Shown: one piece after another, positions 3,014-22,372 of the stretch | Layout: each line of letters opens with the position of its first letter | How positions within the stretch are numbered: the first letter of the stretch is position 1 | Source: Corynebacterium amycolatum | Lineage (GTDB): Bacteria > Actinomycetota > Actinomycetes > Mycobacteriales > Mycobacteriaceae | DNA: 32,000 bases | Assembly (NCBI RefSeq): GCF_049243625.1 | Contig: NZ_CP046975.1 | Strand: one strand, 5' to 3' | The notes under the pieces: model-generated | Seen by the model: the letters and a program-made list of their open reading frames with translations, nothing else | Told to the model about the DNA's origin: nothing | Databases searched by the model: none | Position numbers and translations under genes: made by a program

Positions 3014-3034
3014 CGTTCCCGGGAGCTTCAGTCT

Positions 3035-7465: not shown

Positions 7466-8199
7466 GCAGACTCCCCCGGCCTCGTTTTCACGGCGATGCC
7501 CCACGCCGCAAGCACGGCGATGCCTAAGAACCAGGCCGCGCAGACCACCAGACCCGCAGCCCCGTTGCCGTTGACGGCCTCGCCGGCCGCGGATACGGGG
7601 GTGTGCCCGGCGATTCCGCGCAGGAGAGGACGGAAGTGGTCGGCGGGCATGAGCACCGTGTTGACGAACATCGCAACGATGATTAACGGGATGAGGGCCA
7701 CGGAGCCCTGGGGGCTGGTGATGGAGAACGCGATGTACGTGCCGGTGCATGCGGCCGCCGCGGCAACCATCGCGCCGGTCACCGCGATCCTCCACCACCA
7801 GGACGCCTCAGGGGGGCTGTCGGAAAGCAAGGCGGCCACCGCCACGACGACGACCGACATCGCCATGATCCGGATGAACTCGGCGATGATCCGTGCGGCC
7901 GGCACGGCCGCGTACGGCGCCGGCATGGTGATCAACCGCTCGTGGAGGCCATTGCTGCGTTCAACGAACACAGTGGACGATCCCGTGATGGCCAAGATGA
8001 ACGCCCACGTCGTCACGACCAGGATGACCGCGTTCGGGAGTTCGAACTCTCCGGTGAGCTGCCTGACCAGGCCACCGAACATGCGGTTGACGATGAACAG
8101 GTACACGAGCGGAGCAATGAACGTCATGAACCAGAAGTCGGGGCGCCGCAGCCAAATGTGGGCAATGCGCCGCAGATGCACGAAGATGGGGCCGATCAT
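7462..8199 (-). CDS. ABC-2 type transporter permease (second permease of DrrAB-like exporter)
   Basis: About 245 aa, multi-pass and hydrophobic, with N-terminus MIGPIFVHLRRIAHIWLRRPDFWFMTFIAPLVYLFI typical of ABC-2 permeases. The start is trimmed to the ATGA overlap at 8196-8199. Confidence 0.72.
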   Translation of the reverse strand: MIGPIFVHLRRIAHIWLRRPDFWFMTFIAPLVYLFIVNRMFGGLVRQLTGEFELPNAVILVVTTWAFILAITGSSTVFVERSNGLHERLITMPAPYAAVPAARIIAEFIRIMAMSVVVVAVAALLSDSPPEASWWWRIAVTGAMVAAAAACTGTYIAFSITSPQGSVALIPLIIVAMFVNTVLMPADHFRPLLRGIAGHTPVSAAGEAVNGNGAAGLVVCAAWFLGIAVLAAWGIAVKTRPGESA

Positions 8200-8948
8200 G
8201 ATTCGCTCCTCGAGGTGAACCGGCGGATGAACAGGACGATTCCGGCGACCGCCGCGACACCGAGCCACAGGGCTGCCTCTTCCCCGGCACTATCCGGGAA
8301 GGCATCCGGGGACGCCGCCCTGATCACCTCGATGATCGGCGAAAACGGCATGTGACGTACGACGTCGCGCAGGGAGCCGTCCAAAGCGGTCGCCGGAATG
8401 AACGCAGTGGAGAACATGAGCAGCAGCATTTCCAGCGCCTGGATCGATGAGGCCGTCGACACCGGGGCGGGCACCATCAGGATCACCCCGTCCGTGACCA
8501 GGGACAGGACCGCCGCGGCGAACAGCGACCACAGGACAGTCCACGCGACGTCACCGACAGCCATGTCGAGGCCGCAGGCCCACGCGACGACCAGCAGCGC
8601 CGCGATCGACGCGGACATCCGCAGCACATCGGTGACGAGCCTGCCGGCGACATAGCCGCCTGTGGCCCCGGGCAACACGCGCACGCGGTCAACGAGCCCG
8701 GATTCGACGTCCTGTCCCACCGCCATCGCCGACGCCGCGGCGGTGAACATCGCCGCCTGGAACAGGCAGCCGCCGAGCACGAAACGCAGGTACCCGAAGC
8801 CGGATTGCCCCGCCGAGTACCCAAACACCGCGTACAGGCACAGCAGAAAGAGGGGCGGAACTACGAACATGGAAATCAGCGACGCGGTGTTGCGTCGCAA
8901 CAGTAGCAGATCCCGACGGAGAAACGCCGCGACCGACGTCGCACTCAT
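8196..8948 (-). CDS. ABC-2 type transporter permease (first permease of DrrAB-like exporter)
   Basis: 250 aa, beginning MSATSVAAFLRRDLLLLRRNTASLISMFVVPPLFLL, which is an ABC-2 signature-like start, followed by 6 predicted hydrophobic spans. The start is the ATGA overlap with the ATPase stop (8945-8948). The ORF-track extension to 9434 overlaps the ATPase gene. Confidence 0.72.
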   Translation of the reverse strand: MSATSVAAFLRRDLLLLRRNTASLISMFVVPPLFLLCLYAVFGYSAGQSGFGYLRFVLGGCLFQAAMFTAAASAMAVGQDVESGLVDRVRVLPGATGGYVAGRLVTDVLRMSASIAALLVVAWACGLDMAVGDVAWTVLWSLFAAAVLSLVTDGVILMVPAPVSTASSIQALEMLLLMFSTAFIPATALDGSLRDVVRHMPFSPIIEVIRAASPDAFPDSAGEEAALWLGVAAVAGIVLFIRRFTSRSES

Positions 8949-9964
8949 CGCGCCGCACCCCCTGCGTTCATCGATATGAATACCTCGTTGAGGGTGGGCG
9001 GCGACACGCTCAGCGAATCCGGCAACGCTTCCGAGGCCTCCATCGCCTGCGCCACCGCCTCGAGGACCCGCGGTCCGGGGTCGACGTCGAGGGACACCGA
9101 CTTCCCCGCGACGCGGGCGCCGTCCAGGCACGTTCCTCCGAGGCAGCGGGCGAACGCCTCCGCCTCGGCGGTGGTGGCAAAGGACACGCGGAGCACGTGC
9201 GACCCGAAGTCGCGGCGCAATTCCTCCGGCGTTCCGCTGGCGACGATGCGGCGATCCTTGAGCAGATGGACGTGGTCGGCCAGCGCCTCCGCCTCTTCCA
9301 GGTACTGGGTGGTCAGCACCAGGGTCATTCCGTCGTCTCGCAGCTGCCGGATGAAGCCCCACAGCTCTTCGCGGCTGACCGGATCCAGCCCCGTCGTGGG
9401 TTCGTCGAGGAACAGCAGCCTGGGCACGACGCACAGCGACGCGGCGATGTCGAGGCGGCGCCGCATGCCACCCGAATAGGCCGACGCCAGCGTCGAGGCA
9501 CTGTCTGCGAGCGAGAATTGCGCGAGCAGTTCCGTCGCGCGGGCGGCCGCGGCGGCGCGGTCGAGTCCGCGCAGCCGCCCGAAGAACTCCAGGTTCTCCC
9601 GGCCGGTGAGGTTCTCGTCGATCGCCGCGAATTGGCCGGTGGTGGCAATGTCAGCGCGCACGCCCGCCGGGTTCTCTTTCACATCGCGCGAGAAGATGCT
9701 CACCTCGCCGGAGTCGGCGGTGATGAGCGTCGACAGGATTCGGATGAGGGTGGTCTTGCCTGCGCCGTTGTGACCGAGGAACGACACGATCGCCCCGGCG
9801 GGCACGGTGAAACTCACGCCGTCGAGCACATGCTTGCGCATCCGGGCACCGCGCTTTCCCTTGCGCCCGCCTTCGGGCGGGGTGCCCGCTTTGCCCGCAA
9901 TCGGGTAGCTCTTCGTGAGGTCGCGTACGACGATCGCCGCACCTCGTTCAGCTTGATCCGTCAT
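8945..9964 (-). CDS. ABC transporter ATP-binding protein (DrrA / ABC-2 subfamily)
   Basis: The 339-aa ORF has Walker A GHNGAGKTT, signature YSGGMRRRL, Walker B LLFLDEPTTGLD and H-loop LTTQYLEE, plus a C-terminal regulatory-type extension. There is an ATGA overlap with the upstream gene (9961-9964). Confidence 0.9.
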   Translation of the reverse strand: MTDQAERGAAIVVRDLTKSYPIAGKAGTPPEGGRKGKRGARMRKHVLDGVSFTVPAGAIVSFLGHNGAGKTTLIRILSTLITADSGEVSIFSRDVKENPAGVRADIATTGQFAAIDENLTGRENLEFFGRLRGLDRAAAAARATELLAQFSLADSASTLASAYSGGMRRRLDIAASLCVVPRLLFLDEPTTGLDPVSREELWGFIRQLRDDGMTLVLTTQYLEEAEALADHVHLLKDRRIVASGTPEELRRDFGSHVLRVSFATTAEAEAFARCLGGTCLDGARVAGKSVSLDVDPGPRVLEAVAQAMEASEALPDSLSVSPPTLNEVFISMNAGGAAR

Positions 9965-11139
9965 CGTTTCCCCTTTTCTTTGGTATCGCAGTGGGCCGCT
10001 GTCGGCAGCGGCCCCGTGGTCGGGTTGTCATGCGGCACCTCGATATGGATGCCCGCATCGCGGGCGAAGGCGAGGACCGGTTCGAGGAGCCGGGGGTGGC
10101 CGACGAGATCCCGGCACCCCGGCGCGACCGGCTTCCCCGCGACCGCCACAACGGTGGCGGCAGCAATCGCCGCGGTCATTTTGTAGGAACCCGGGCCGGT
10201 CGCCCGGACGACGGTCGTCTCGGCCGCCGGGCCCGCATCGCCCGCGCCGGCGGACGACAGTGCGACGACCAGCTCGGCGGGTTGCGGAGTGCCCTTCGCC
10301 CGCGCCTTCCGCGATGTCACGGCCGCCCCGAGACGGGCGAGCAGACCGGAGACAACGGGCATCGAGTACAGTCTCGACGTGCGGATTTTCTCCACCGACT
10401 CATCGGGGAGGGCATCGAAGGCGACGTGGTAGGAATATCCACGGATCGAGGGGCACACCTCGCGTACGACGTCGATGTCCGGGCATTCGTAGCTGATTCC
10501 GCTTTGCGACGACACCGGGTTGCGCCGCACCTCGACGATGGTGCCGCCGAGCATCGTGCGGTATCCGCCGCGGATAGTCCGGAACATTGACTCGACCGCC
10601 GCGGCCCCGGATTCCTGGTCGGCGCCGATTCGCAGATCGACCCGCACATCGCGGACCTCTTCGGCGCCCGCGGCGCGGGCCCCGAGCACCAACAGGGCCG
10701 TCGACAAGCCCGGGCACAGACCGAACCCGGTGAGCACGGGAACCCCCTCCCGCCGGGCATCCCCGTCGAGGGCCATGATCGCGCGGCGGGCGTCGATCGA
10801 ATCGTTGACGTCGATGTACCCGGTGCCTGAGTCGATGCAAGCACGGGCGAGTGAGTCTGCGTGCACCTCGAACGGGCCGGTGCAGTTGACCACCCAATCG
10901 TGTTTGCGGAAGACCCTGCAGATCTCGTTGTGGCCGGCGGCGATCCTCAGCGGGAAGTGCCGCCCCGGGCCATCGTCTGGCTTCTGCCGGGAAGTGTAGG
11001 CCAGCTCAATCCCGTCGACGACGCCGAGCATCCCCCGGACGAGCCGTCCGGTGACGCCGGTACCTCCGGCCACCAGCACTTTCACGGGTTCGCCCGCGTC
11101 GCGGTCCCGTGCTTCCCCGCCGTTTCGTCGGTCAGTCAT
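9961..11139 (-). CDS. Saccharopine-dehydrogenase-like NAD(P)-binding oxidoreductase (candidate tailoring reductase)
   Basis: The 392-aa ORF has an N-terminal Rossmann motif VKVLVAGGTGVTGRLV. The layout NCTGPF...GTGYIDVND...VPVLTGFGLCPGLS resembles the saccharopine dehydrogenase NADP-binding family. Its ATG at 11139 overlaps the NRPS stop by 8 nt. Confidence 0.7.
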   Translation of the reverse strand: MTDRRNGGEARDRDAGEPVKVLVAGGTGVTGRLVRGMLGVVDGIELAYTSRQKPDDGPGRHFPLRIAAGHNEICRVFRKHDWVVNCTGPFEVHADSLARACIDSGTGYIDVNDSIDARRAIMALDGDARREGVPVLTGFGLCPGLSTALLVLGARAAGAEEVRDVRVDLRIGADQESGAAAVESMFRTIRGGYRTMLGGTIVEVRRNPVSSQSGISYECPDIDVVREVCPSIRGYSYHVAFDALPDESVEKIRTSRLYSMPVVSGLLARLGAAVTSRKARAKGTPQPAELVVALSSAGAGDAGPAAETTVVRATGPGSYKMTAAIAAATVVAVAGKPVAPGCRDLVGHPRLLEPVLAFARDAGIHIEVPHDNPTTGPLPTAAHCDTKEKGKR

Positions 11140-14100
11140 TTTCCATCTCGTTTCCCCGGTCCCGCGACCGGTCGATTCCTTCGGACGACGGGTCCGCTGC
11201 CCTGTCGTCCGTTTCCGGCGCTCGGCGCCGGCGTTCGATGTACTCCCCGATGAGGGCCCCGGTCAGCGCGGCATCCTCTCCGAGGACGAACGAATAGTGG
11301 TTTCCCGCGACGCTGGCGACGCAGAGGTCATCGACGAGGTGGTCCCGCCACTGGTCGTGGTTGTGAGCCTCGCCGTCATCGGGGAGAACGAACAGCGCCT
11401 CCCTCACCCGACCCTCGGGCCGGTACCGGGTGCGGGCATCGATGAGCGAGCGCAGCGAGTTGAACTCCGTCGCCGTCACCCGGTCGCCGGAAAGCCCAAG
11501 GTCCTCCAGGAGCGTCGGTGCGACTGCTGCGGCCAGGGCACGCAGACGGGCCCCCCGTTCCTCGTCGGTCTCATCGACCCCGCCGAACTCCGCCCAGAGG
11601 CGGGCAACCGGCGTTCCGTGCGGGAGATCGGCGATCGAGGGCACCACCCGGGACAGCAGCCCCTTTTCGGATTCCGCGCCGAAATCCCCGACGTCGACCG
11701 CGATCCCCGGAGCCAGGCTGTCGAGAAACACCAGCGCGGGATCAAGATCGGCCAAACGGAGCACCATCTCGGCCGCGATGGTGCCGCCGAGGCTCCATCC
11801 GACGATCGCCGGGGCGGCACCGTCGACGAGCACCTCGCGGACCCGGCCCGAGTAGTGGGCCGCGATGTCGCCGATGCCGATGGCGTGGGGGAATGGTCTC
11901 TCGAACTCCGCGAAGCCGACGCCCCACACCTGCCCGCCACCGGGGATCGCGAGGGCCAGGTCTCGGTAGATGTCGACGGTGCCGAATCCGCCGTGGACGA
12001 GGAAGATCGGGTGCGCCTCATCGCCGCTGCGCAATAGGACCAGCGAACGGTCCGCGGCCGACGCGCCGGGATCATCCGCGTCCCGCCGGTCGGTCGGCGT
12101 GGCCGTCGACTGGCCGACGAGCTCGGCCACGCCACGTGGCGTCGGCTTGGCCAGCGCTTCCGCGAGCGGCACCGATGCCCCGGTGATGTCCTGGATCCGC
12201 TGCATCAGATTCACGAATCCCAGGGAGTCGTAGCCGAGGAGGAACAGGTCGTCGTCCGCGCCGGCTTCGGCGCCGCCTAGGTCGGCCCGGACCATCCCGG
12301 TGATGACCGTCAGGTATTCGCGAACTCGGCCCATCAGGTCCCCGGATGCGATCCTCGAGATCGCGCCCGACCTGTCGCGCTCCGCCGATGACGCGCCCGC
12401 GACGCCGTCGCCGATCGCCCCACCGCTGGAAGAAGTGCCCCCGACCGCCAGACGCAGGCGCCGAACCTGGCCGACGCTCAGCGGCGCCGCTTCGGGGCAG
12501 CCCCCGGCGAAGCCCGACACCGACCTGATGTAGTGGTCGAAGATGTCCTCCACCAGTTCCGGTTCCAGGATCTGCTCGACGAAATCCCAGGCGACGTTGA
12601 TACGCCCGCCAACTTCCATCACTTGGTTGTCCAACAGCACCTGCGGGGTCTGGGAGATGGCGTAATCGACGTCACCCAGGACGTGGGCGCCCCTGCCCGA
12701 GCCATCGCCTGCCGCGGAACCCTCGCCGAACAGCAACGAGGTGTACACGAACGGCGCGATGGCCTGTCCGACGGGCAGACCCCGGTGGCGCGCGATGGCG
12801 CCGAGCAACGACACCCCGGAGTACCCGGCCGCCATGTGCCCGAGCAGCCGGTCGCGCAGTTCCGCCGTCCACCAACGGAGGTCATAGTCGGCGGCCGCTT
12901 TCACCGGCATCAGAATGACGCCGGTGAAATCACCGAAGACGCCGGCGAAGTCGGCGATTTCGGGATCACGGTTGTACGTGGTGATGTTGATGCCGACCGA
13001 ATCCCCCCTCGACCACAGCGACAGGCTCGTCGCATAGCAGGCGAGAAGCAGTGCGGACACGCTGCCGTCGGCGGCGCTGGCCCGTTCCCGCAACAGTGCG
13101 GTTTCCTCAGCGGTGAACGTGTGCGACAGGCGACGCATCCGCGGCACATCCACGTCCACGGCCGCACCGATTGATGGAAGGGTGTTGCCGGGCGGGAAGT
13201 CCTCGACCACTGTCCGAGTCAACGTCTCATCGCCACGCCCGACCGCCGAAGCCTCCCGGCGCTTCATCTCCAAGACGTACGTGCGGTAGTCGCCGGTGAC
13301 GGGCGGAAGCTCCGTTCCCCGGTACAGCTTGTCCAGGTCGTCGATGAAAATCCGTTGGCTCGCCCCGTCTCCGATGATCATGTCCACGCTGAAGAACAGG
13401 CGGTGCCGCCCGTCCGGGAGCGCGAACGCCGACAGATGGAACAAGGGCCAGCTGCCCAAATCGAATACCTGGTGGCTCAACTCATCGCGCTTGCGCCGCA
13501 CCGCCTCGACCACGGTCGCCTCATCGGCGGCCCGGTAGTCGGCGACGGCAATGCGGTAGCGCGGAACCTCCGGCAGGATCCGCTGCGTGGCTTGTGCGGT
13601 GAACACGACGCGCAGCATCGGATGCCTGCGGATGAGGTTGTCGAGGGCGTCCTCCAGGCGGTCGATGTCGGTACCGGGTTCGGTGACGGATTCGATGTAG
13701 TAGTGCTCGGTGACGCCGCCCAGCTCGAACCCGGAGTTCCGGCCGACGTAGTAGGCCTTCTGCATGTCGGTCAGGGGGAACGGCGCGTGGGGGTCGTCCC
13801 CGAATTGTTCCACCGGATCCTTCCCGTGGGCACTCGCGGAGGATTCTCGGACGCCTCCTGCGACTGAACCGGCACCGCCGGCACAATCGAGGGAAGACAC
13901 TGCCTCGGCGACGGCTTCAGACTCGGCACCGGACTCCCGCATGGCCTCCGAGACAAGGCCGGCGATGTGCGCGATGGTCGGGTCGGCGATGACGTCGCGG
14001 AAACGGAGCCGGACGCCCGTCTTCTGCCGGATCGCGCGCATCATAACCTGGAATTGCAGGGAATCGCCGCCGCGGCGGAAGAAGGACTCTCCCGCGCCGC

Positions 14101-17100
14101 ACGCCGGATCCGCCGCACTCGTCGACGGGGCTTCCCCGAGGATCTCGTCGAAGACTCCGGACACCAACTCGATCGCCCCGGGGACGGCGACGGAACCATC
14201 CGCGCCCGCGGCTCCGGCCTCCGCCCCGGCGACCTCGCCATCGGCCGTTGCCCCGCCGCCCGCGGCGCCGACGTGCCTACGAATTTCCTCCTGATCCAGT
14301 TTCCCGTTGACGGTGACGGGCAGGTGCGCCACGGGCAGCAGGACCGTCGGTACCATGTACGCTGGCAAGCAGCGGGCGAGCTCGGCCCGGACGACATCCC
14401 GCGAGCCGGTCATGTCGTCCGCCGGAACGTAAAGGCACGCCAGGAGTCCCCGACCGCCCGATTCGACGACCGCCGCCATCGACGCGGTCACCAGGCCGGA
14501 CCGCTCGAGGACCGATTCGATTTCTCCGAGTTCGACGCGGAAGCCCGCGATTTTCACCTGACGATCGCGGCGGCCGAGAAATTCCACGAAACCCTCCGCG
14601 TTGAAGATGCCCACGTCTCCGGTCCGGTAGCAGCGCCCGATGCCTGGGACATCCACGAAGGCGGCAGCGGTCCGCTCTGGATCGGCCGCATACCCCTGCG
14701 CGACGCCGAGACCGCTGATGTGGATTTCCCCCGGCACGCCGACGGGGCAATGCACCCCGTCGGGCGCGAGCACGTGAATGCCCTGGTTCGCCAGCGGGTA
14801 CCCGTAGGGAATGCGGTTTTCCAGGCTGTCGCGTTGCAGCGGGCAGTAGATGGACCAAATGCTTCCTTCGGTCGCACCGCCGAGGCTATTGATCGACGCG
14901 TTCGGGAACATGTCCATGGCGCGCGCCGGAAGCCCCGCTGCGATGCGATCGCCGCTAAGCAATACGGTGCGCACATCCGGGAACACGTCGTCGTCCGACG
15001 CCCGGACCAGGGCGAGCTCCAAAAGGGCGGGCGCGGAGTTCCACAGCGTGACCCGCTCTTCCCGCAAGACGTCGAGGATTTCATCGGCGTCGCGCTCGTC
15101 TCCGACCATCGTCACCGTCGCGCCTGCCGCAAACGCCCCGAACACGTCGTAGACCGACAGGTCGAATCCCAGCGACGACAATCCGATGATGCAATCGGCG
15201 GAGGTGACCCCATACCGCCGGTTCACGTCGAGGATGGTGTTGATGCAGTTGCGGTGACTGATCCGCACACCCTTTGGCCGGCCCGTCGTCCCCGAGGTGA
15301 AGATGACGTAGGCAAGGTCGTCAGGGGCAGTGCCAAGCGAAGGGTGCGCACCCGCGCTGCCCGCGCGGTCGCAGACTTCCGCGGCTGCGGGCTTGCCGAC
15401 GCCCGCCACTCCGCTTTGGTCCAGTTCATCGATCACGCCGGTGTCCAGAATCGGGCCCGACGCACCTGAGGCTTCCACGACGTATTCCTGTCGCTGGGCC
15501 GGCATGCCCGCGTCGACGGGCACGAATGCGGCTCCCGCACGCAATGCGCCGACCATGTTGACGATGTCGTCGGGATGCTTGGTGTAGCGCACGATCACCG
15601 CGTCCCCCGCCCCGACGCCGGAATCTGAGAGATGGCGGGCGATGCGTCCGGCCCGGGCCCAGACCTCGGCGTAGGTGTACGAGATGCCCCGGGCGGCGAG
15701 GCGCACGGCCGGCGCGTCCGGAGTCGCCGCGTATGCGGCTTCGACAAGCGAAACCAGGGTGTCATCGTGGATCGGGCCCGCAGCGTCGTTGTAGCGGGCG
15801 ACGGCCCCCTCCGTCTCCGCATGACGGATGGGCAGAGCCTCTCCCCCCTCCGCCACCACGTCCAGGGCCTCCGCAACGGCCCCGAACATCGCATCTACCG
15901 CGGGGAAGTAATCGTCGACCACGTCCCACGACAACGTCATCCCGCCCGATGCCGGCATCACTTGGATGTCGAGGCACACCTGCGCGGTTTGCGTGTAGAT
16001 GCGTTCGATGACTGGGCTGCGCCCGCTGCCCCGCTCGCCGCCGAGGTAGCTGGTGAACACCACCGGAGCAGTGGCCTGGGTCTGATTGGCCGCGTCCCGG
16101 AGGAATCGCTGTAGCACCTCCACACCGGAAACGCCGCGGTGGGACAGCCCTTCGCGAATGTCCAGGTCGATCGCCTCCGCCAACCCGTCGATGGTCGCGG
16201 CTCTCCCGGCGTCGACGCCGACGAGCATCGATGAAGTGAAATCTCCCATCACCCTCGTGCCCGCGGCGAGGCCGCTGCGTTCGCTGACAGTCACGTTGAC
16301 CGTCAACGCCGATTCGGGCAGCCACCTGCAGACGACGGCGGCGTTGACGGCCATTACCAGCGACGACAGGGTAACTCCAATGCGGCGGGCCCGTTCGCCG
16401 AGCTTGGCGGTGATCTCCGCGTCGAGCACCGTGCCCAAGCGCCGGGTCGACCAATCGTCGTCACCCCTCACGGCCGCCGGGAACTCCGGGCGCCGCGGCA
16501 GATCTGCGGCCTTCTTCTCCCAATAGGCGAGGTCCTCGGCTCGTTTCCCGTCGCGCCGGCGCGCAGAGATTGCCGCCAGGGCATCCCCATATCTGGAAGC
16601 CGGAGCCGGCGGCTCCCCGGCCAGCAGGGATTCGAGCTCGTCGAAGAACAGGTACACCGAACCCGCATCCATGACGATCATGTTGAAGTAGATGAACATC
16701 CTGCACCCGCCCGCATCTGCGAGCAGCCTCGCGGCGACCATGGGACCGTCCTCGTTCGACGATCGCGCCGCGGTTCGCATGTCCCGACGGATCTCCCCCA
16801 CCGCCGCGTCGACATCGTCGCCGGACCCGACTACCTCGACGGTGGCGAGGCACGCGCCGGTCGGGCTCAAGACCCCGGCATCGACATCGAGCCGATGGAA
16901 CAGCACGTCGTGACGCCCGAAGACCGTCCGCACGGCCTCCTCCACCTGCGGCAACGAATAGTCGTGCCGGGATTCCGCGTAAATGTACGTCGCTTGGCCG
17001 CCAAGCTCGATGTCCTCGTCCGCGCCGAGCAGGTAGGCGGTCTGGATTGGATTGAGCGGGACCGCATCCGCGGGACCGGCCCCATTTTTGCCGGCACAGC

Positions 17101-17470
17101 CGTCATCCGACTCACCCGTCGCTACAGCGGGGTCGGCCCCGGCAGCGGCGCCTGCGGCAGATCCGGCATCAGCGCCACCCCGGGCGGCGTCGATGACGGC
17201 CGCCAAATCAGCGACCGTGACCCCGGGGTCCATCGCCCCGTAATCGATGGTGACCCCGTACTCGTCCTCCAGCGCCAGCAGCATCTGGAGGAAAGTCAGG
17301 GAGTTCGGGATGTGGTCGCGGAGTTTCACGTCCGCCGAATCCAGGTGCACGCCGATGGCGTCGGCGATGGACTCCGACAGCCTTTCGGGGGCGACTCGGG
17401 CCCCGGTGCGGGCTTCTCCCACGGCGGTAGATGCGACGGCCGGCGCGATCGTTTCATTGGTCATCGTCAT
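11132..17470 (-). CDS. Non-ribosomal peptide synthetase, domain order T-Cy-A(Cys)-T-Cy-T-TE (HMWP2/PchEF-like)
   Basis: A single 2112-aa ORF. All NRPS core motifs are readable in the translation (see domain features below). The start ATG at 17470 lies 4 nt after the stop of the acyl-AMP ligase gene. Confidence 0.95.
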   Translation of the reverse strand: MTMTNETIAPAVASTAVGEARTGARVAPERLSESIADAIGVHLDSADVKLRDHIPNSLTFLQMLLALEDEYGVTIDYGAMDPGVTVADLAAVIDAARGGADAGSAAGAAAGADPAVATGESDDGCAGKNGAGPADAVPLNPIQTAYLLGADEDIELGGQATYIYAESRHDYSLPQVEEAVRTVFGRHDVLFHRLDVDAGVLSPTGACLATVEVVGSGDDVDAAVGEIRRDMRTAARSSNEDGPMVAARLLADAGGCRMFIYFNMIVMDAGSVYLFFDELESLLAGEPPAPASRYGDALAAISARRRDGKRAEDLAYWEKKAADLPRRPEFPAAVRGDDDWSTRRLGTVLDAEITAKLGERARRIGVTLSSLVMAVNAAVVCRWLPESALTVNVTVSERSGLAAGTRVMGDFTSSMLVGVDAGRAATIDGLAEAIDLDIREGLSHRGVSGVEVLQRFLRDAANQTQATAPVVFTSYLGGERGSGRSPVIERIYTQTAQVCLDIQVMPASGGMTLSWDVVDDYFPAVDAMFGAVAEALDVVAEGGEALPIRHAETEGAVARYNDAAGPIHDDTLVSLVEAAYAATPDAPAVRLAARGISYTYAEVWARAGRIARHLSDSGVGAGDAVIVRYTKHPDDIVNMVGALRAGAAFVPVDAGMPAQRQEYVVEASGASGPILDTGVIDELDQSGVAGVGKPAAAEVCDRAGSAGAHPSLGTAPDDLAYVIFTSGTTGRPKGVRISHRNCINTILDVNRRYGVTSADCIIGLSSLGFDLSVYDVFGAFAAGATVTMVGDERDADEILDVLREERVTLWNSAPALLELALVRASDDDVFPDVRTVLLSGDRIAAGLPARAMDMFPNASINSLGGATEGSIWSIYCPLQRDSLENRIPYGYPLANQGIHVLAPDGVHCPVGVPGEIHISGLGVAQGYAADPERTAAAFVDVPGIGRCYRTGDVGIFNAEGFVEFLGRRDRQVKIAGFRVELGEIESVLERSGLVTASMAAVVESGGRGLLACLYVPADDMTGSRDVVRAELARCLPAYMVPTVLLPVAHLPVTVNGKLDQEEIRRHVGAAGGGATADGEVAGAEAGAAGADGSVAVPGAIELVSGVFDEILGEAPSTSAADPACGAGESFFRRGGDSLQFQVMMRAIRQKTGVRLRFRDVIADPTIAHIAGLVSEAMRESGAESEAVAEAVSSLDCAGGAGSVAGGVRESSASAHGKDPVEQFGDDPHAPFPLTDMQKAYYVGRNSGFELGGVTEHYYIESVTEPGTDIDRLEDALDNLIRRHPMLRVVFTAQATQRILPEVPRYRIAVADYRAADEATVVEAVRRKRDELSHQVFDLGSWPLFHLSAFALPDGRHRLFFSVDMIIGDGASQRIFIDDLDKLYRGTELPPVTGDYRTYVLEMKRREASAVGRGDETLTRTVVEDFPPGNTLPSIGAAVDVDVPRMRRLSHTFTAEETALLRERASAADGSVSALLLACYATSLSLWSRGDSVGINITTYNRDPEIADFAGVFGDFTGVILMPVKAAADYDLRWWTAELRDRLLGHMAAGYSGVSLLGAIARHRGLPVGQAIAPFVYTSLLFGEGSAAGDGSGRGAHVLGDVDYAISQTPQVLLDNQVMEVGGRINVAWDFVEQILEPELVEDIFDHYIRSVSGFAGGCPEAAPLSVGQVRRLRLAVGGTSSSGGAIGDGVAGASSAERDRSGAISRIASGDLMGRVREYLTVITGMVRADLGGAEAGADDDLFLLGYDSLGFVNLMQRIQDITGASVPLAEALAKPTPRGVAELVGQSTATPTDRRDADDPGASAADRSLVLLRSGDEAHPIFLVHGGFGTVDIYRDLALAIPGGGQVWGVGFAEFERPFPHAIGIGDIAAHYSGRVREVLVDGAAPAIVGWSLGGTIAAEMVLRLADLDPALVFLDSLAPGIAVDVGDFGAESEKGLLSRVVPSIADLPHGTPVARLWAEFGGVDETDEERGARLRALAAAVAPTLLEDLGLSGDRVTATEFNSLRSLIDARTRYRPEGRVREALFVLPDDGEAHNHDQWRDHLVDDLCVASVAGNHYSFVLGEDAALTGALIGEYIERRRRAPETDDRAADPSSEGIDRSRDRGNEMEND
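11246..12049 (-). other. NRPS domain TE: type I thioesterase
   Basis: Spans aa ~1808-2075. Motifs are PIFLVHGGFG, nucleophile elbow GWSLGG (Ser1893), FLDS (candidate Asp1917) and GNHYSF (candidate His2058). Confidence 0.85.
12116..12337 (-). other. NRPS domain T2: peptidyl carrier domain
   Basis: Spans aa ~1712-1785, with motif LFLLGYDSLGFVNLM (Ser1749). Confidence 0.85.
12506..13786 (-). other. NRPS domain Cy2: canonical heterocyclization domain
   Basis: Spans aa ~1229-1655. Motifs are FPLTDMQKAYYVGR, DMIIGD (DxxxxD, aa 1363-1368), VFGDFTG, APFVYTSLL and SQTPQVLLDNQ. Confidence 0.88.
13946..14179 (-). other. NRPS domain T1: peptidyl carrier domain
   Basis: Spans aa ~1098-1175, with motif FFRRGGDSLQFQVMM (Ser1137). 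Confidence 0.85.
14276..15778 (-). other. NRPS domain A: adenylation domain, cysteine-type specificity code
   Basis: Spans aa ~565-1065. Motifs are A3 YVIFTSGTTGRPKG, A4 FDLSVYD, A5 NSLGGATEGSIWS, A7 YRTGD, A8 GRRDRQVKIAGFRVELGEIE and A10 NGKLD. Hand alignment to GrsA-PheA numbering gives the code D-L-Y-N-L-S-L-I-W-K, the classic Cys code. There is no methyltransferase or epimerase insert between A8 and A10. Confidence 0.85.
15806..17062 (-). other. NRPS domain Cy1: heterocyclization-type condensation domain, variant active-site motif
   Basis: Spans aa ~137-555. Motifs are VPLNPIQTAYLLGA (the Cy N-terminal motif lacking the GR), NMIVMD in place of DxxxxD (aa 263-268, nt 16667-16684), VMGDFTSS, APVVFTSYLGG and TQTAQVCLDIQ. 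Confidence 0.8.
17177..17398 (-). other. NRPS domain T0: N-terminal acyl/aryl carrier domain
   Basis: Spans aa ~25-98. The phosphopantetheine site motif is HIPNSLTFLQMLLALEDEYG (Ser57), with N in place of the usual D/G before SL. Boundaries are approximate. Confidence 0.75.
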
Positions 17471-17474
17471 CGCC

Positions 17475-19247
17475 TCAGAGCAGAGCCTCGAGCTTGCGGC
17501 GGAGCTTCTTGCCGTTCGACGCGACGGGCAGCTCGTCGACCCACAGAACCCGGGAGACGGGCACCCCGGCGACGCGCATCAGCTCGGTCGTCGCGGACCG
17601 GGTCACCGCCTGTTCATCAATCGGAGGTTCATCCCCGTCCGATTGCCCGGCACCGGTCGCATCGTCGGCCTTACGATCGGTCGGGGTCCGCCTGGCCAAG
17701 AACACGGCGATCTCCTCTTCGCCCGTGGCTGGGTTGCTCCGGCCGAGAACGGCAACATCGCGGTCAAGCACATTCTCCAGCACGGCTTCCAAATCAGCCG
17801 AATAGTAATTCCGGCCGTTGACGAAGATGATGTCCTTCTTCCGGCCGAGGACGAACAACTCGCCGTCGCGGAGAATGCCCATGTCCCCCGTTGCGAACGC
17901 CCCGTCATCGGTGAGCTCGTGCTCCACGATCCCCTCTGCTGTGATCGCGGCGCGGGTCATCGGAGCGCCGGCGATGTGGATTTCACCGACGGTGCCGTCG
18001 CCGAGGACCCCGCCCCCGTCATCGCGGATGGTCAACGAGATCCCCGGGACGGCCTTGCCCAAGGCGACGAACTCAGCTCCGGACTCGCTCTCGATGTCCT
18101 CGAAACGCTGCCCCGTGGCGATGCCCGTCCGGTCAAGTCGCACCGTGGACAGACCCGAGTAGATGTCCCGGGTCGTAACCAGGAGGCAAGCTTCGGACAT
18201 TCCGTAGGCGGAGGTCAGGGCATCCTCCCGGAGGCCCATGGCGGACATCGCCGCGAGGAACTTCCGGGCCAATGGAGCGTCGATGGGTTCAGAACCGCTC
18301 ATCAGCTTCTGGACGTTGGAGAAGTCGTAACCGTGGTCATCCCCGAGGGGCCGGCGCTCGAGATAGCGCAGGAAATGCTTGAACGCGAAGTTCGGGCACA
18401 CTGTCACCGTCGGCCGGTGCCTGGTCACGGCCTCGAACCACCTCGGGGGATCGGCGACCACCTCGGAAACCGGCAGCAACACCTGGTCGTACCCACGAAA
18501 AAGGGCGTAGACGTGGAAGCCGATCAGCGAAAGGTTGTGGGTCAAAGGTAGCCACGTGAGCATCTTGTTCTCGTACCGGTGCGCGTGGCGTGGGATCGTC
18601 GCGCGCAGACCGTTCAGCACGGACTCGTTGGTTACGATGACGCCTTTTGGCGATCCCGTGGAGCCGGACGAAAACTGGATGAGGGCTTCGCCGGCCGTCC
18701 CACCTCGCACCGGGAACGCGGGGACCGCCCCGGCGCCATCCCCGGAATCCACGTCCCCCGCCTGAGAGAAGTCCGATTCAGCATCACCCGGCATCGCCGC
18801 ACCCGGTTCCGCGGCAGCGTCATTGACGATGGACACGTCGAGCAGCCGGTCCTCGCCCACGACCACGGCGCCGTTTGCGCCGGTGAGCAGCGTGTGACTG
18901 CGTTCGTCGACCAGGATCGGGGCCCCGGGCATCATGTCCGAGAGCGTCCGCACCCTGTCGACGTCAACCGGGCCCGACACCGGCGGCGCAAGCGCCGGAA
19001 CCGCGCCGGCGTAGACGCAGCCCCAGAACGCCCGGATGAGCCCGCGGTTCTCCGAAACCTGGAAGATCACGCGATCGCCGGGGCCGATGCCGGCTTCGGC
19101 CAACCGAGTCGCAGCCGCCACCGCCTCCGCATGGACCCGGCCATACGGGACGAAGACGTCCCGCCGATTCTCGACGAAGGTGATCCCCTTTTTCGTCTCA
19201 TCGGCCTTGTCCCGAAGCACGTCGCTGATGGTCCGGATCGTGTTCAT
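17475..19247 (-). CDS. Stand-alone adenylate-forming enzyme, fatty-acyl-AMP-ligase (FAAL/FadD)-like starter-unit loader
   Basis: The start is trimmed to ATG 19247, which has GAAAGAGG 6-7 nt upstream. Motifs are IQFSSGSTGSPKGV (A3), WLPLTHNLSLIGF, SAYGMSEA (A5), FATGDMG (A7), GRKKDIIFVNGRNYYSADLE (A8, FAAL-type) and SNGKKLRRK (A10). These are not the DhbE/YbtE/PchD aryl-acid ligase motifs. Confidence 0.82.
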   Translation of the reverse strand: MNTIRTISDVLRDKADETKKGITFVENRRDVFVPYGRVHAEAVAAATRLAEAGIGPGDRVIFQVSENRGLIRAFWGCVYAGAVPALAPPVSGPVDVDRVRTLSDMMPGAPILVDERSHTLLTGANGAVVVGEDRLLDVSIVNDAAAEPGAAMPGDAESDFSQAGDVDSGDGAGAVPAFPVRGGTAGEALIQFSSGSTGSPKGVIVTNESVLNGLRATIPRHAHRYENKMLTWLPLTHNLSLIGFHVYALFRGYDQVLLPVSEVVADPPRWFEAVTRHRPTVTVCPNFAFKHFLRYLERRPLGDDHGYDFSNVQKLMSGSEPIDAPLARKFLAAMSAMGLREDALTSAYGMSEACLLVTTRDIYSGLSTVRLDRTGIATGQRFEDIESESGAEFVALGKAVPGISLTIRDDGGGVLGDGTVGEIHIAGAPMTRAAITAEGIVEHELTDDGAFATGDMGILRDGELFVLGRKKDIIFVNGRNYYSADLEAVLENVLDRDVAVLGRSNPATGEEEIAVFLARRTPTDRKADDATGAGQSDGDEPPIDEQAVTRSATTELMRVAGVPVSRVLWVDELPVASNGKKLRRKLEALL

Positions 19248-19421
19248 TGGTACCTCTTTCGGTTGTCGGCGCCATGCTGGTGCCGGGCGGACCGGGCCCG
19301 CATGGCGTGACCCGGAGGATGTGTCTGAAGGGTTGAAAGGGTGAAGCAACTGGGTGGGGCGCGTCTCCGCACAAGCTCGGAAACGCTCGCGGGCCCGGGA
19401 CCCGCCGGTTCCGGGTGCCCG

Positions 19422-21734
19422 TCAAGTCACTGCGGACACCAGGGCGACGACGAAGGCCGCGGCGGACGCTGCGGCCACGAACCCGTCACGCACTCGCCAG
19501 GGGTGATCGGTGCGGAAGGTGCGCCGCGGATGGCGGCCGAAGTTGCGCATCGCCAGGGTCAGGGACAGCTTTTCGGCGCAGCGCACGGCGCTGACGAACA
19601 AGGGAAAGGCGATGCACGCGGGCGTCGTCGCGCGAATGAAGCCGGAGCGGAAAGACTGCCCCGGTCGCATCGAGCGCAATCTAATCGCCCATGTCAGATG
19701 GGGGATTTCGCTGCGCAGGAACGCCGCGATGCTCACCCCGGAAATCGCTATGGTGCACCATGTGTAGGGCACCCGGAGGCGTTGCACCATGGCGTCGAAA
19801 AGCTCCTCGACGCGCATGCACGCGGAGACCAGGACCGTCCCCGCGAACACGGCCGTCAGCAGCAGTCCGTGATGGATGCCGTGGCGGACGGCCTCCGCCG
19901 GATCCCCACCGCCGTAGAACTCGGAGCGCCACCCAAGCAGGCCGAAGAACACCCCGATCAACAGGACGAGGAGGACCTTCCCCGCCGTCGCCCGAACGTC
20001 GCGTTCCGCGATCGCAGCGAGTGCGAGGAACGCGACCCCCGTCAGCGCGAGAACGGCATCTTCGCCGGAGAGCAGCCCGGCGACGAGGACGAGCATCACC
20101 GCCGCGACAATCGTGATGGTGTTCAACCCCGCGCGCCTCCGAGCGGCGGATTCACCGGTCCAGGGGCTTTCGTCCCCGGACGTCCGTACGCCGGCCGCGG
20201 GCAGTGCGCGATCCCGCCGGGACGACTCCGGGGCAGCCGGCACGTCGGCCGCGGGACCGGACCAGGCGACCTTCCCTTCGGTGACGATGCTCGCCCGATC
20301 CGCCCACGTTCGCGCGGCACGGCGGTCGTGGCACGTGAACACAACGGTTCCGCCGGCCCCGGCGTATTCCGCTAGGGCATCCAGTACGATGCGCGAGCTC
20401 GGCGAATCCAGGTGCGCCAACGGTTCGTCGAGAAGCAGCAAACGGCGATTGGCCGCCACCGCCAGGAAGATGCCCAACCGTCTTTTCTGTCCGCCCGACA
20501 GGACGAACGGCGAGACGGGGTCAAGTGCCCGGGGGCACAGGGCTTCCCGCAGTTTCCGCAGCTCATCGGCGCCGAGTGGCCCGTGCGGGTCCGTGCCGGC
20601 CAGCGCGGAGTCGATTTCCGCGGCGACGGTCGCGCGGGTGAACTGGTGCTCGGGGTTCTGGAACGCCAACGACGCGAAGGCGTCGGGGACGCGCCGGGCA
20701 GACGCGCCGTCAATCCGGAGGTCCACTCCCGCCTTCATCTGGCCCGACAGCACCGCCAGCAAGGTGGACTTACCGGCTCCGTTGGCACCGACTAGGGCAT
20801 GAATCTCGCCCCGTTCCAGTGTCAGATCGGCCCCGTTCAGGATCCTCTCCCCGCCTCGGGTCACGTGGGTTCCGGTCAAGGCCAGCAGTGGAACGGCATC
20901 CGCCTCCGATTCCGGATTGGGACGGTCCGGCACCCCCGTGCCCGGCGTACTGGCGTCCGGCGTTCCGGCGGTCGCGGCCGTCGTCGCAATGCCCTTCACC
21001 GCGATGCCATCCGGCGCTCCGTGGGCGGCGACGCTCCCGTCCGCATCGAGGATCGTCACCGTGTCGACCCACCCGTCGAACGGGCGGAGGTCGTGCTCGA
21101 TGAGCAGGATGACGCGCCCCGGGGCCCGCAAATCACGGATGGCGGCGAACAGCGACCGGCGACCGTCCTCGTCGACGTGGGCCGCGGGCTCGTCGAAGAT
21201 CATGACCTCCGGCGCCCTGGCCACCGCACCGGCGATGGCCATCCGCTGGCGTTGCCCGCCCGACAAAGCCCACGGATCCTTCTCCGCGAGCTCTGACAGG
21301 CCGAGCTCCGATAGAGCCTCGGCTGATCGCTTGGCGACGATACCGGCTTCCACGAGGGAAAACTCGAGGGCCATGGCCACGTCATCGACGACTCGGAGCG
21401 TGAGCACCTGCGTCGCCGGGTCTTGCCCGACGAAGGTGACCAGGTCCCCGTCCACGGGGCGTTCGGTGCCGTCGGCATCGACGATGTGCACGAATCCGGC
21501 ATGGTCGATGGGGATGTGCGAGGGAATCAGTCCAGCGATGAGGTGGGCCAGGCTCGTCTTTCCGCATCCCACGGGTCCCGTGATGGCGTTGATCGTGCCG
21601 AAATCGAAGGAGAGATCCACCATGTCGGGTGCCCATCGCCCATCGGCGTGCCGCACGCCCGCGCCCCTAACCCGTAACCGGGCCGGGGCCGTCCCGCGTG
21701 TCGCACCGGCGCACGCGGGTGCTCCGCCGGTCAC
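19422..21734 (-). CDS. Fused ECF-type transporter energizing module: ATPase-ATPase-transmembrane (EcfA-EcfA'-EcfT/CbiQ-like)
   Basis: 770 aa from GTG 21734, which forms a GTGA overlap with the upstream stop. NBD1 (about nt 21030-21683) has GPVGCGKTS / LSGGQRQR / VMIFDEP / IEHD. NBD2 (about nt 20250-20888) has GANGAGKST / LSGGQKRR / LLLLDEP / TCHD. The C-terminal ~235 aa (about nt 19425-20129) are multi-pass with CbiQ/EcfT-like Arg-containing coupling helices (WAIRLRSMRPG, LTLAMRNFG). The ORF-track extension to 22118 overlaps the upstream gene. Confidence 0.8.
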   Translation of the reverse strand: MTGGAPACAGATRGTAPARLRVRGAGVRHADGRWAPDMVDLSFDFGTINAITGPVGCGKTSLAHLIAGLIPSHIPIDHAGFVHIVDADGTERPVDGDLVTFVGQDPATQVLTLRVVDDVAMALEFSLVEAGIVAKRSAEALSELGLSELAEKDPWALSGGQRQRMAIAGAVARAPEVMIFDEPAAHVDEDGRRSLFAAIRDLRAPGRVILLIEHDLRPFDGWVDTVTILDADGSVAAHGAPDGIAVKGIATTAATAGTPDASTPGTGVPDRPNPESEADAVPLLALTGTHVTRGGERILNGADLTLERGEIHALVGANGAGKSTLLAVLSGQMKAGVDLRIDGASARRVPDAFASLAFQNPEHQFTRATVAAEIDSALAGTDPHGPLGADELRKLREALCPRALDPVSPFVLSGGQKRRLGIFLAVAANRRLLLLDEPLAHLDSPSSRIVLDALAEYAGAGGTVVFTCHDRRAARTWADRASIVTEGKVAWSGPAADVPAAPESSRRDRALPAAGVRTSGDESPWTGESAARRRAGLNTITIVAAVMLVLVAGLLSGEDAVLALTGVAFLALAAIAERDVRATAGKVLLVLLIGVFFGLLGWRSEFYGGGDPAEAVRHGIHHGLLLTAVFAGTVLVSACMRVEELFDAMVQRLRVPYTWCTIAISGVSIAAFLRSEIPHLTWAIRLRSMRPGQSFRSGFIRATTPACIAFPLFVSAVRCAEKLSLTLAMRNFGRHPRRTFRTDHPWRVRDGFVAAASAAAFVVALVSAVT

Positions 21735-22372
21735 CGGGTGACCCCGCGGCTGCGAAGCCCCTTTGCGACGGCAAAGCCCAGGACCAAAAACACCAAGCTC
21801 GATGCCAAGGCTACGGCGAAGCTGATCAGGGTCATGGGAGTGGTCGGCGAGTCGACGCCGACTGCGCGCGGGGCCATCGGTCCCATCAGCGCGGAGAACA
21901 ACATCGCCGACGCCACGAACTGGGGACGCGTCCACCGCCGGTACAGGGTGACCATGAACGGAAGCTCGATGAGCAATCCTTCCATAATCAGCGCCCCGAT
22001 TGCGGCGATGCCGAACGGGGTGGTCGCCGCGGACACGACGCCCATGGCAAGGCACGCGATGAGGCTCGCGCCAAGCTTGCGGACGACGATGAGGGGAACA
22101 ACGCACTGCAGGAACCACAACCCGAGCGTCGCCGCGACGAGATAAACGTGGGCGATGCCGGCGAACACCTGCAGGTAGGTCAGGGGCACGATGATGAGAG
22201 ACCCCGCGACGCCGATTGCGGCGGCGACGAGCATGTCGCGGGTGGATGGTCGGCCACCCGCTGCGACCGGTGCGACGTGCACCAACCGCCCGTCATCCGT
22301 CTGCGACGCCACCGCGTCCCCGGCTCCCCCTCCGGAGAGGGGCTCTCCGGTCGATCCACGTTTTCCGTTCAT
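21731..22372 (-). CDS. Multi-pass membrane protein, probable ECF-transporter substrate-capture (S) component
   Basis: 213 aa with about 6 hydrophobic spans after a 45-aa Gly/Ala-rich cytoplasmic N-terminus. Its size, topology and position immediately upstream of (and translationally coupled to) a fused EcfAA'T gene fit a group-I ECF S component. The family was not recognised at sequence level. Confidence 0.6.
   Translation of the reverse strand: MNGKRGSTGEPLSGGGAGDAVASQTDDGRLVHVAPVAAGGRPSTRDMLVAAAIGVAGSLIIVPLTYLQVFAGIAHVYLVAATLGLWFLQCVVPLIVVRKLGASLIACLAMGVVSAATTPFGIAAIGALIMEGLLIELPFMVTLYRRWTRPQFVASAMLFSALMGPMAPRAVGVDSPTTPMTLISFAVALASSLVFLVLGFAVAKGLRSRGVTR

Follow-up and report, generated by a model that had tools for sequence, protein, structure and literature searches.

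A mobile operon of Corynebacterium amycolatum with a likely role in making and transporting a small thiazoline-type metallophore

What compound does a nonribosomal peptide synthetase (NRPS) of 2112 amino acids (aa) in Corynebacterium amycolatum make together with the ligase encoded beside it, and does that compound carry metal? The genes lie on the minus strand of a 32,000-nucleotide (nt) stretch of contig NZ_CP046975.1 (assembly GCF_049243625.1), hereafter the window. The original prediction described the region 11132–19247 as a one-protein assembly line for a pyochelin- or yersiniabactin-like product with a non-aryl starter. The ligase and NRPS core that it described is real but the region left out a putative reductase gene (9961–11139), a methyltransferase gene (6671–7465), three transport systems and a DtxR-like box. 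The NRPS and the ligase are only part of the unit. The true unit is an 11-gene operon (3166–22372, minus strand), which is likely to be a mobile, iron-repressed unit for making and transporting a small thiazoline-type metallophore. Its features, in order of transcription, are the following.

22430–22448, minus strand: predicted DtxR/IdeR-like operator TAAGCATTGCCTAACCTAA, 58–76 nt upstream of the operon's first gene
21731–22372, minus strand: putative substrate-capture (S) component of an energy-coupling factor (ECF) transporter, 213 aa (Pfam ABC_cobalt PF09819, E 1e-16)
19422–21671, minus strand: ECF-type ATPase-ATPase-transmembrane (CbiQ-like) fusion, start codon approximate (Pfam ABC_tran twice and CbiQ)
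17475–19247, minus strand: stand-alone adenylate-forming ligase of the fatty acyl-AMP ligase (FAAL) type, 590 aa counted from the ATG chosen in the original prediction, presumed loader of the first NRPS carrier, T0 (Pfam AMP-binding, E 5e-46)
11132–17470, minus strand: NRPS, 2112 aa, domain order T0-Cy1-A(Cys)-T1-Cy2-T2-TE, where T is a carrier, Cy a heterocyclization, A an adenylation and TE a thioesterase domain (Pfam and PDB comparisons)
9961–11139, minus strand: NAD(P)-binding oxidoreductase with the saccharopine dehydrogenase (SDH) fold, 392 aa (AlphaFold model and Foldseek)
8945–9964, minus strand: DrrA-like ATPase of the ATP-binding cassette (ABC) superfamily (TIGR01188 drrA; Pfam ABC_tran and DrrA1-3_C)
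8196–8948, minus strand: ABC-2 (DrrB-like) permease (weak NCBIfam DrrB-family and drrC matches)
7462–8199, minus strand: second ABC-2 (DrrB-like) permease (weak NCBIfam DrrB-family and drrC matches)
6671–7465, minus strand: class I S-adenosylmethionine (SAM)-dependent methyltransferase, 264 aa (Pfam Methyltransf_23, _25, _31, _12 and _11)
4896–6674, minus strand: ABC half-transporter with the exporter fold, IrtA/YbtP-like (Pfam ABC_membrane and ABC_tran; PDB matches)
3166–4899, minus strand: second ABC half-transporter of the pair, also with the exporter fold (Pfam and NCBIfam)

The operon genes are translationally coupled. The TGA of the ligase gene is followed by a 4-nt spacer and the ATG of the NRPS gene, as the original prediction had read; the NRPS stop overlaps the start of the gene for the 392-aa protein by 8 nt, and later neighbours overlap by 4 nt.

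Pfam assigns to the NRPS three PP-binding, two Condensation, one AMP-binding and one Thioesterase domain. This agrees with the motif reading and with the three carriers, two Cy domains, single A domain and TE that had been predicted. The weak N-terminal carrier T0 was scored by scanning that stretch alone. The domains are arranged along the protein as follows.

17192–17386, minus strand: T0 carrier, residues 29–93, Ser57 in IPNSL (PP-binding 23.9 bits against a cut-off of 20.8)
15791–17062, minus strand: Cy1, about residues 137–560, motif N263MIVMD268AGS (best PDB matches all Cy domains)
14276–15739, minus strand: A domain, about residues 578–1065, 10-residue code DLYNLSLIWK (TIGR01733 351.7 bits against a cut-off of 317.4)
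13961–14158, minus strand: T1 carrier, Ser1137 in GGDSL (PP-binding 34.4 bits)
12503–13789, minus strand: Cy2, about residues 1228–1656, motif D1363MIIGD1368GAS (BmdB Cy2, 5T3E)
12116–12304, minus strand: T2 carrier, Ser1749 in GYDSL (best PP-binding stretch, residues 1723–1785)
11285–12010, minus strand: thioesterase, nucleophile Ser1893 in GWSLG and His2058 (Pfam Thioesterase 37.8 bits against a cut-off of 26.4)

The catalytic and carrier residues do not vary among 14 NRPS homologues of 44–98% identity; Ser57, Ser1137 and the TE residue His2058 are examples from the alignment of this 14-member family. The top eight PDB matches of Cy1, and likewise those of Cy2, are heterocyclization domains (HMWP2/Irp2, EpoB, BmdB, FmoA3 and PchE), with E-values of 2.7e-34 for Cy1 against HMWP2 (7RY6) and 4.8e-60 for Cy2 against BmdB (5T3E). 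Ordinary condensation domains matched Cy1 and Cy2 no better than 1e-7 to 1e-10, so that neither falls in the ordinary class and the earlier assignment of both to the Cy class holds. The E-values of the domain matches are far beyond chance. Cy2 has the canonical DxxxxDxxS motif (DMIIGDGAS). Furthermore, Thr473 (VVFTS) and Asp501 (CLD) of Cy1 and Thr1577 and Asp1614 of Cy2 are invariant in the family. Work on BmdB reportedly ties the threonine (VFTS) and aspartate (QVxLD) of Cy domains to cyclodehydration.

The code positions of the A domain were taken from an alignment to LgrA and read DLYNLSLIWK, which we take to be the published specificity code for (cyclised) cysteine. Among PDB structures, the Cy-A (Cys) module of BmdB gives the best match to a single domain (371 bits). 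Code and structural match together bear out the cysteine-type A domain of the original prediction. The A domain is of normal length, without an epimerase- or methyltransferase-like insert, and Pfam detects no oxidase domain in the NRPS. As each of T1 and T2 is preceded by a Cy domain, the predicted layout is compatible with a single A domain serving both carriers. The linkers between the NRPS domains are rich in Ala, Gly and Asp, similar to an acidic insertion in the ligase. An exact look-up of the window NRPS found no record.

The identity of the starter depends on the ligase. Among solved structures it scored best against StsA (6ULX, 192 bits) and McyG (179 bits), followed by the FAALs (130–150 bits), which comprised the Legionella and E. 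coli enzymes and FadD32; the bacterial FAALs scored 146–150 bits. Ligases for 2,3-dihydroxybenzoate (DHB) and salicylate reached 53–58 bits only in the same PDB comparison. A grouping with aryl-acid ligases had been named in advance as the result that would speak against a non-aryl starter, and the ligase does not group with them. The non-aryl reading of the starter therefore stands, and by these scores the protein is clearly not a salicylate or DHB ligase.

Assignment as a FAAL holds at the level of the superfamily. Like FadD32, FAAL28, the E. coli and Legionella FAALs, StsA and McyG, the ligase has the AMP-binding fold, the motif PNFAF, a GRxKD(I/L)I motif (here within GRKKDIIFVNG) and an insertion of about 24 residues that follows motif A5 (YGMSE) when the family is aligned with the NRPS A domain. 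It also has a FAAL-type A8 stretch (GRKKDIIFVNGRNYYS), and its long A5–A6 segment aligns to that of StsA almost without gaps. Like these enzymes, it is predicted to transfer its substrate to a carrier protein rather than to CoA. However, it reads HNLSL in place of the FAAL motif HDMGL. Its nearest NCBIfam models are FAAL and long-chain ligase models, all of which it matches below their curated cut-offs (PRK09192, 229 against 600; PRK07768, 252 against 572; FadD32_Coryne, 183 against 875). The FAAL-type motifs and insertion of the earlier reading were thus confirmed, but no curated FAAL model was reached and a fatty-acid substrate is not established. The StsA domain activates alpha-ketoisocaproate and McyG takes an aromatic phenylpropanoid acid (review PMC11253843). 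The nearest solved relatives take a keto acid, a phenylpropanoid or (C12) fatty acids; it can safely be said that the predicted substrate is a non-amino, probably hydrophobic, carboxylic acid passed to a carrier protein.

Related ligases are fused directly ahead of T-Cy-A in four other loci (L004, L017, L029 and L050) from gut and oral Blautia, Hungatella, Actinomyces acetigenes and Eubacterium infirmum, which supports a hand-off from ligase to T0 in the window. The fused loci suggest that acyl-primed thiazoline lines form a broader class among host-associated bacteria, and we know of no characterised product for such lines. Ligase residues of about 140–183 (window positions of about 18700–18830) form an acidic low-complexity insertion that includes AAAEPGAAMPGDAESDFSQAGDVDSGDGAGAVPAF. 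The 73%-identical homologue P0122 has a shorter version of it, and more distant family members have none. A conserved asparagine at the D235-equivalent position of the ligase was considered as a sign of an alpha- or ortho-oxygenated substrate and dropped as unsafe, since FAALs carry an isosteric Asp there. An exact look-up of the related Gordonia ligase (P0123) found no record.

The match to StsA leads to an alternative in which the assembly line is the same and the starter is an alpha-keto or alpha-hydroxy acid, yielding a 2-(1-hydroxy/oxo-alkyl)thiazoline chelator. The keto group of such a starter would be reduced by the SDH-like enzyme, or would itself take the part of the oxygen donor that salicylate supplies in pyochelin. 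StsA, with its alpha-ketoisocaproate substrate, is indeed the best solved relative (192 bits against 146–150 for the bacterial FAALs), the ligase has the same G-M-S-E motif, with Met replacing the Pro of amino-acid A domains, and an oxygen donor in the cap should make a chemically better Fe(III) ligand. However, the pocket differs from that of StsA at 8 of the 10 code positions as read from the alignment (NLIVLSALLK versus IGVWMNASAK), other family members have Leu instead of Met in the motif, and the ligase has no embedded ketoreductase domain, unlike StsA. Furthermore, SDH-fold enzymes usually work on C=N rather than C=O. We therefore regard an alpha-oxygenated starter as unlikely.

The 392-aa protein encoded directly downstream of the NRPS was the sole oxidoreductase of the window, and no PchG/YbtU-type thiazolinyl imine reductase domain was detected among the Pfam-scanned open reading frames (ORFs) of the window. 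Its Pfam Sacchrp_dh_NADP match was sub-threshold and a PDB sequence search returned nothing significant. An AlphaFold (AF2) model built from 11 family sequences (predicted local distance difference test score, 86; predicted template modelling score, 0.87) placed it by Foldseek among lysine dehydrogenase (3ABI), carboxyspermidine dehydrogenase (8DEB and 8H4Z) and saccharopine dehydrogenase/reductase, with E-values of about 1e-19 to 1e-14. A GGTGxTG dinucleotide-binding motif is invariant in its family, and the protein adjoins the NRPS in all family loci. Enzymes of the saccharopine and lysine dehydrogenase types use NAD(P)(H) to form or reduce C=N bonds. Since its fold relatives act on such bonds, the protein is a candidate for the reductase that would convert a thiazoline to a thiazolidine.

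Association of SDH-type proteins with Cy-containing NRPSs extends beyond this family. A family profile found SDH-type ORFs in 15 of 80 unrelated Cy-NRPS loci, several immediately downstream of the NRPS, and four of the five that we checked with Pfam exceeded the Sacchrp_dh_NADP gathering cut-off. The 80 background loci came from a contig scan dominated by the generic motif AY[ILV]IFTSG; they share ≤39% identity and include no close relatives. An SDH-family ORF also lies near the fused FAAL-like NRPSs of L004, L029 and L050. A tblastn search of plasmids with the SDH-like protein returned distant SDH-family genes only. Locus L008 was considered as a source of a PchG-type reductase for testing whether such enzymes and SDH-like genes exclude each other, and was dropped as it is not a pyochelin locus. 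In the equibactin cluster of Streptococcus equi, the SDH-family protein EqbM is needed for active product when the pathway is reconstituted in E. coli (PMC3672683).

The operon lies in a high-GC island of ~20 kb (about 3000 to 22500), with a GC content of 0.66–0.70 inside and 0.57–0.63 outside. The island lies between pth and a glyceraldehyde-3-phosphate dehydrogenase-like (gap-like) gene and adjoins a truncated transposase. Two features describe its extent.

2782–23203, no strand: DNA common to the window and the C. simulans locus L001 (blastn)
22868–23695, plus strand: IS110-family transposase remnant at the island's upstream edge (Pfam DEDD_Tnp_IS110, profile positions 43–155 only, and Transposase_20)

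By blastn the window and the C. simulans contig are 96–98% identical over 2782–2995 and 3158–23203, and the flanks differ beyond. The same gene order occurs in a C. simulans genome (NRPS 98% identical), in C. canis and in two metagenome loci (NRPS 48% identical, about 50% GC). A metagenome-assembled genome (MAG) of the Propionibacteriaceae (L085) keeps ligase, NRPS and SDH-like genes together, and has the methyltransferase and ECF genes on the opposite strand. The conserved core of the predicted biosynthesis is formed by the ligase, NRPS, 392-aa protein and methyltransferase. The NRPS belongs to a 90%-identity cluster of 644 members from C. simulans, C. amycolatum, C. tuscaniense, C. rhinophilum and other strains, which often lie on separate contigs of about 20 kb. 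Outside the 14-member family, NRPS identity was ≤35% among the 120 best matches listed. Judged from these sequences, the island is horizontally spread among skin and nasal corynebacteria.

Several further observations concern the island and its relatives. No S-component gene occurs within the stretch of L085 that we examined. In L001 the island has another genomic context, yet an 84-aa pth fragment adjoins it, and in four other genomes that carry the window's prs gene pth is again next to the island's last ABC gene. That 392-aa SDH-like proteins are also listed in the 90%-identity NRPS cluster (P0001) is most likely an artefact of clustering, caused by gene calls that are fused or overlap. A natural 8.2 kb deletion allele lacks window positions 10884–19080, so that ligase codon ~55 is joined in frame to SDH-like codon ~89 with a 10-nt overlap. 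The allele retains the transporter genes but has lost the NRPS entirely, along with most of the ligase and the 5' end of the gene for the reductase. The junction is identical in L086 and L087, contigs of two different metagenome samples, and the chimeric proteins P0299 and P0300 represent 226 and 60 member sequences, respectively. Carriers of this allele may be non-producers that still take up the compound.

Read on the coding strand, the operator at 22430–22448 agrees with 15 of the 19 positions of the consensus TTAGGTTAGCCTAACCTAA. No other site in the 32 kb window comes within five mismatches, and shuffled sequences gave 0.01 sites at ≤4 mismatches. DtxR/IdeR-like boxes lie upstream of the operon in 4 of 5 family loci: the box of L001 is at the same position with three mismatches, and those of L002 and L003 have five. 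The operon is, on this evidence, probably iron-repressed. No Zur-like box was found in the promoter region with the consensus used, and a scan detected neither a sigma-70-like promoter nor a terminator. The Propionibacteriaceae MAG has a perfect 19/19 box (TTAGGTTAGCCTAACCTAA) at 9869–9887, about 115 nt upstream of its ligase gene.

Three transport systems accompany the biosynthetic genes. The S component occupies the same position in L001, L002, L003 and L084, and its ECF fusion partner matched NCBIfam ECF_ATPase_1 and _2 at about 194 bits, below the cut-offs. The DrrA-like ATPase scored 276 bits against a TIGR01188 cut-off of 312, and Pfam called ABC2_membrane in the L001 counterparts of the two permeases. 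Of the half-transporter pair, only the half encoded at 4896–6674 was searched, and its best single-half PDB matches were IrtA (330 bits) and a chain of YbtPQ (6P6I_A, 270 bits), against about 214–218 bits for MsbA. IrtA, with IrtB, forms the mycobactin importer. The conservation of the iron box, the IrtA/YbtPQ-like transporters and the uptake-type ECF module together argue for a metallophore rather than a mere antibiotic.

The opposite case is that the product is a lipophilic bioactive thiazoline, antimicrobial or signalling, with the ABC systems serving export and self-protection. Antibiotic clusters commonly contain DrrAB-type pumps and ABC pairs with the exporter fold, and a plain acyl-bis-thiazoline would offer a donor set poor for Fe(III). 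Against this, DtxR/IdeR-like boxes are conserved upstream across genera, the operon has a conserved ECF uptake module, the ABC pair resembles IrtA and YbtPQ more closely than MsbA, and the common deletion allele loses biosynthesis only and keeps the transporters. A role unrelated to metal thus appears improbable.

A metallophore pathway can be drawn from these parts. When iron is scarce, DtxR would leave the box read at 22430–22448 and the operon would be transcribed. The FAAL-type ligase would adenylate a non-amino, probably hydrophobic acid and load it onto Ser57 of T0, and the single Cys-specific A domain would charge both T1 and T2 with cysteine, as in HMWP2. Cy1 and Cy2, whose class and residues are those of cyclizing domains, would then condense and cyclodehydrate the intermediates to an acyl-capped thiazolinyl-thiazoline thioester on T2. 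A thiazolidine could then arise through reduction of one C=N bond by the SDH-fold enzyme, and the product could be methylated by the stand-alone methyltransferase, steps that would parallel PchG and the methyltransferase domain of PchF in pyochelin via unrelated proteins. Release of the free acid by the TE and export by the DrrAB-like pump would follow, and the ECF module and/or the IrtAB/YbtPQ-like pair would re-import the metal complex. Tentatively, we propose for the product a thiazoline-(N-methyl)thiazolidine carboxylate with a non-aryl cap (fatty or alpha-oxo/hydroxy), with an SDH-fold imine reductase and recapture by the ECF module. This would be a new class of metallophore encoded on an exchanged island, with the deletion allele marking non-producers.

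Several points weigh against this interpretation. The operator departs from the consensus at four positions, no regulator gene lies in the island, and the scan detected no sigma-70-like promoter. Cy1 has Asn263 in place of the first Asp of its motif (NMIVMDAGS); the residue is nearly invariant in the 14-member family, which suggests a family trait rather than decay. A plain fatty-acyl cap would leave two nitrogens and a carboxylate as donors, a weak ligand set for Fe(III). Thiazoline reduction is only a proposed role of the modelled SDH-like enzyme, and such enzymes may do something else. The equibactin cluster holds both a YbtU-like reductase and an SDH-like protein (PMC3672683), so the two need not be equivalent. 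Finally, the PDB matches of the methyltransferase are generic small-molecule methyltransferases from which the methyl acceptor is not predictable.

How close does the locus come to characterised thiazoline pathways? The iron-repressed pyochelin system of Pseudomonas aeruginosa (PchD, PchE, PchF and PchG) joins an acid starter to two cysteines, and a separate Cy domain cyclises each of them. An NAD(P)H enzyme acting in trans then reduces one ring, a methylation follows, and a terminal TE frees the carboxylic acid. The genes of the window suggest the same acid-Cys-Cys assembly, reduction in trans, methylation and TE release, and the candidate reductase and the methyltransferase in the operon make the analogy stronger. 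In contrast to pyochelin, the assembly line is one polypeptide with a single A domain for two carriers and no epimerase-like insert, the ligase is of the FAAL rather than the salicylate type, and no salicylate synthase is present. The candidate reductase has the SDH fold instead of the PchG/YbtU type, the methyltransferase is separate and the transporters are others. The architecture first proposed holds and its HMWP2-plus-TE logic is reasonable; the tailoring partners are separate proteins.

HMWP2 (Irp2) of yersiniabactin synthesis has the same carrier-Cy-A(Cys)-carrier-Cy-carrier order with a single A domain, and its Cy domains are the closest solved relatives of Cy1 (7RY6 and 7JTJ). The YbtPQ-like ABC pair of the window is a further likeness. 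Unlike in yersiniabactin synthesis, a TE is fused after the second module, and HMWP1, a polyketide synthase (PKS) and a third ring are lacking, as are a YbtE-type aryl-acid starter ligase, a YbtU-type reductase and YbtS. A Pfam scan of the window ORFs detected no salicylate synthase, isochorismate synthase, phosphopantetheinyl transferase (PPTase) or PKS, and a regular-expression search of the window for MbtH-like motifs found no MbtH-like gene, in agreement with the original prediction for the salicylate and isochorismate synthases, PPTase and MbtH-like gene. As far as its genes reveal, the locus shares the compact pyochelin/HMWP2-type logic but lacks two hallmarks of the aryl-capped family, an aryl-acid ligase and a PchG/YbtU-type reductase.

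A third comparison, by description, is with the equibactin locus (eqbA-N) on ICESe2 of S. equi, whose product was never isolated (PMC3672683). Both systems are Gram-positive and borne on mobile elements, have control of the DtxR family (in the window as a prediction), and encode an HMWP2-like NRPS and an SDH-family protein (EqbM in S. equi). The dedicated multi-gene importer (EqbHIJ) and ABC half-transporter pair (EqbKL) of the eqb locus are, by description, further likenesses. The differences are that eqb has its own regulator and a PPTase, a salicylate ligase resembling YbtE, a reductase of the YbtU kind and, in EqbG, a third Cys module whose TE is inactive. Pfam scans and PDB comparison detected no salicylate ligase, YbtU-like reductase or third Cys module in the window.

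S. equi provides the precedent for a reading in which the ligase takes scavenged salicylate or another aryl acid, uptake replaces the synthase and the product is a known 2-hydroxyphenyl-thiazoline (a pyochelin or thiazostatin analogue): having no salicylate synthase, S. equi needs exogenous salicylate for equibactin (PMC3672683). McyG, the second-best PDB relative of the window ligase, also uses an aromatic acid. However, the ligase scored 53–58 bits against DHB and salicylate ligases and 130–192 bits against FAAL-type enzymes, and it has the FAAL-type insertion and motifs; in contrast, the equibactin ligase EqbD is 42% identical to YbtE (PMC3672683). An aryl cap is accordingly very improbable in our view.

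The original prediction had also named, as a possible orthologue, a DtxR-regulated sid locus of C. diphtheriae. That locus exists and is DtxR-regulated: it encodes an NRPS (SidA) and a PKS (SidB) next to a divergent OppA-type ABC importer, is under both DtxR and Zur, and has no known product (PMC6711530). By architecture the operon is not its orthologue. Orthology to sidAB-cdtPQ is scarcely credible. In its favour, each of the two Corynebacterium loci combines an HMWP2-like NRPS with a YbtPQ-like ABC pair and a DtxR site. However, the Pfam scans found no PKS or OppA-type gene in the window; its NRPS ends in a TE, and the accompanying genes encode a FAAL-type ligase, an SDH-like protein, a methyltransferase and an ECF module. 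Furthermore, no C. diphtheriae protein was among the 120 best matches listed (identity outside the family ≤35%), and no Zur-like box was found with the consensus used.

The preferred reading, a mobile metallophore operon, finds a probable precedent in a survey of skin Corynebacterium. GCF-50 of the lsaBGC study is a predicted NRPS siderophore cluster, highly conserved across divergent skin Corynebacterium species (PMC10210951). Mobile elements flank it, its codon usage is atypical in C. simulans PES1, and it occurs in roughly 10–30% of the C. striatum, C. simulans, C. jeikeium and C. amycolatum genomes (PMC10210951). The island resembles it in its high GC content, insertion sequence (IS) remnant, near-identity of the NRPS across species and overlapping species list. 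The locus is thus probably GCF-50, matched by description and not by sequence. The earlier study differs in giving no domain analysis, starter or tailoring prediction, or product (PMC10210951). In the literature searched we found no report of a product of this cluster or of a characterised thiazoline or NRPS siderophore from Corynebacterium. The cluster is less novel than the original prediction held: its family is widespread, conserved and probably already flagged as a predicted siderophore biosynthetic gene cluster.

Neither the logic of the scaffold nor the gene cluster itself is new; the interest lies in the predicted cap, the SDH-fold enzyme, the ECF module and the wide mobile spread. If the proposal is true, a non-aryl cap would be placed on a pyochelin-like scaffold and an SDH-fold tailoring reductase would recur beside Cy-type NRPSs, which would explain the need for EqbM in equibactin. 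The ECF module would likewise serve chelate uptake, an import route not established for siderophores. Its carriers are common commensals of human skin and nose and members of the C. striatum/simulans group, which includes multidrug-resistant hospital isolates. The cluster moves between species and, if its product is a metallophore, would shape metal competition in skin and nasal communities. With the natural deletion allele at hand, producers and presumed non-producers could be compared without building a mutant.

Two minor observations concern the gap-like gene beside the island. Its ORF (24063–25628, minus strand) is 521 aa long from a TTG codon, with ~160 residues ahead of the NAD-binding domain; this lead may be an overlong ORF call and not a real extension. 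A 30-nt copy of the 3' end of the gene (24063–24092), 80% identical, is found at 3035–3064, just within the island's downstream edge. The copy may have been left behind when DNA inserted or recombined between pth and gap, or it may be a chance match.

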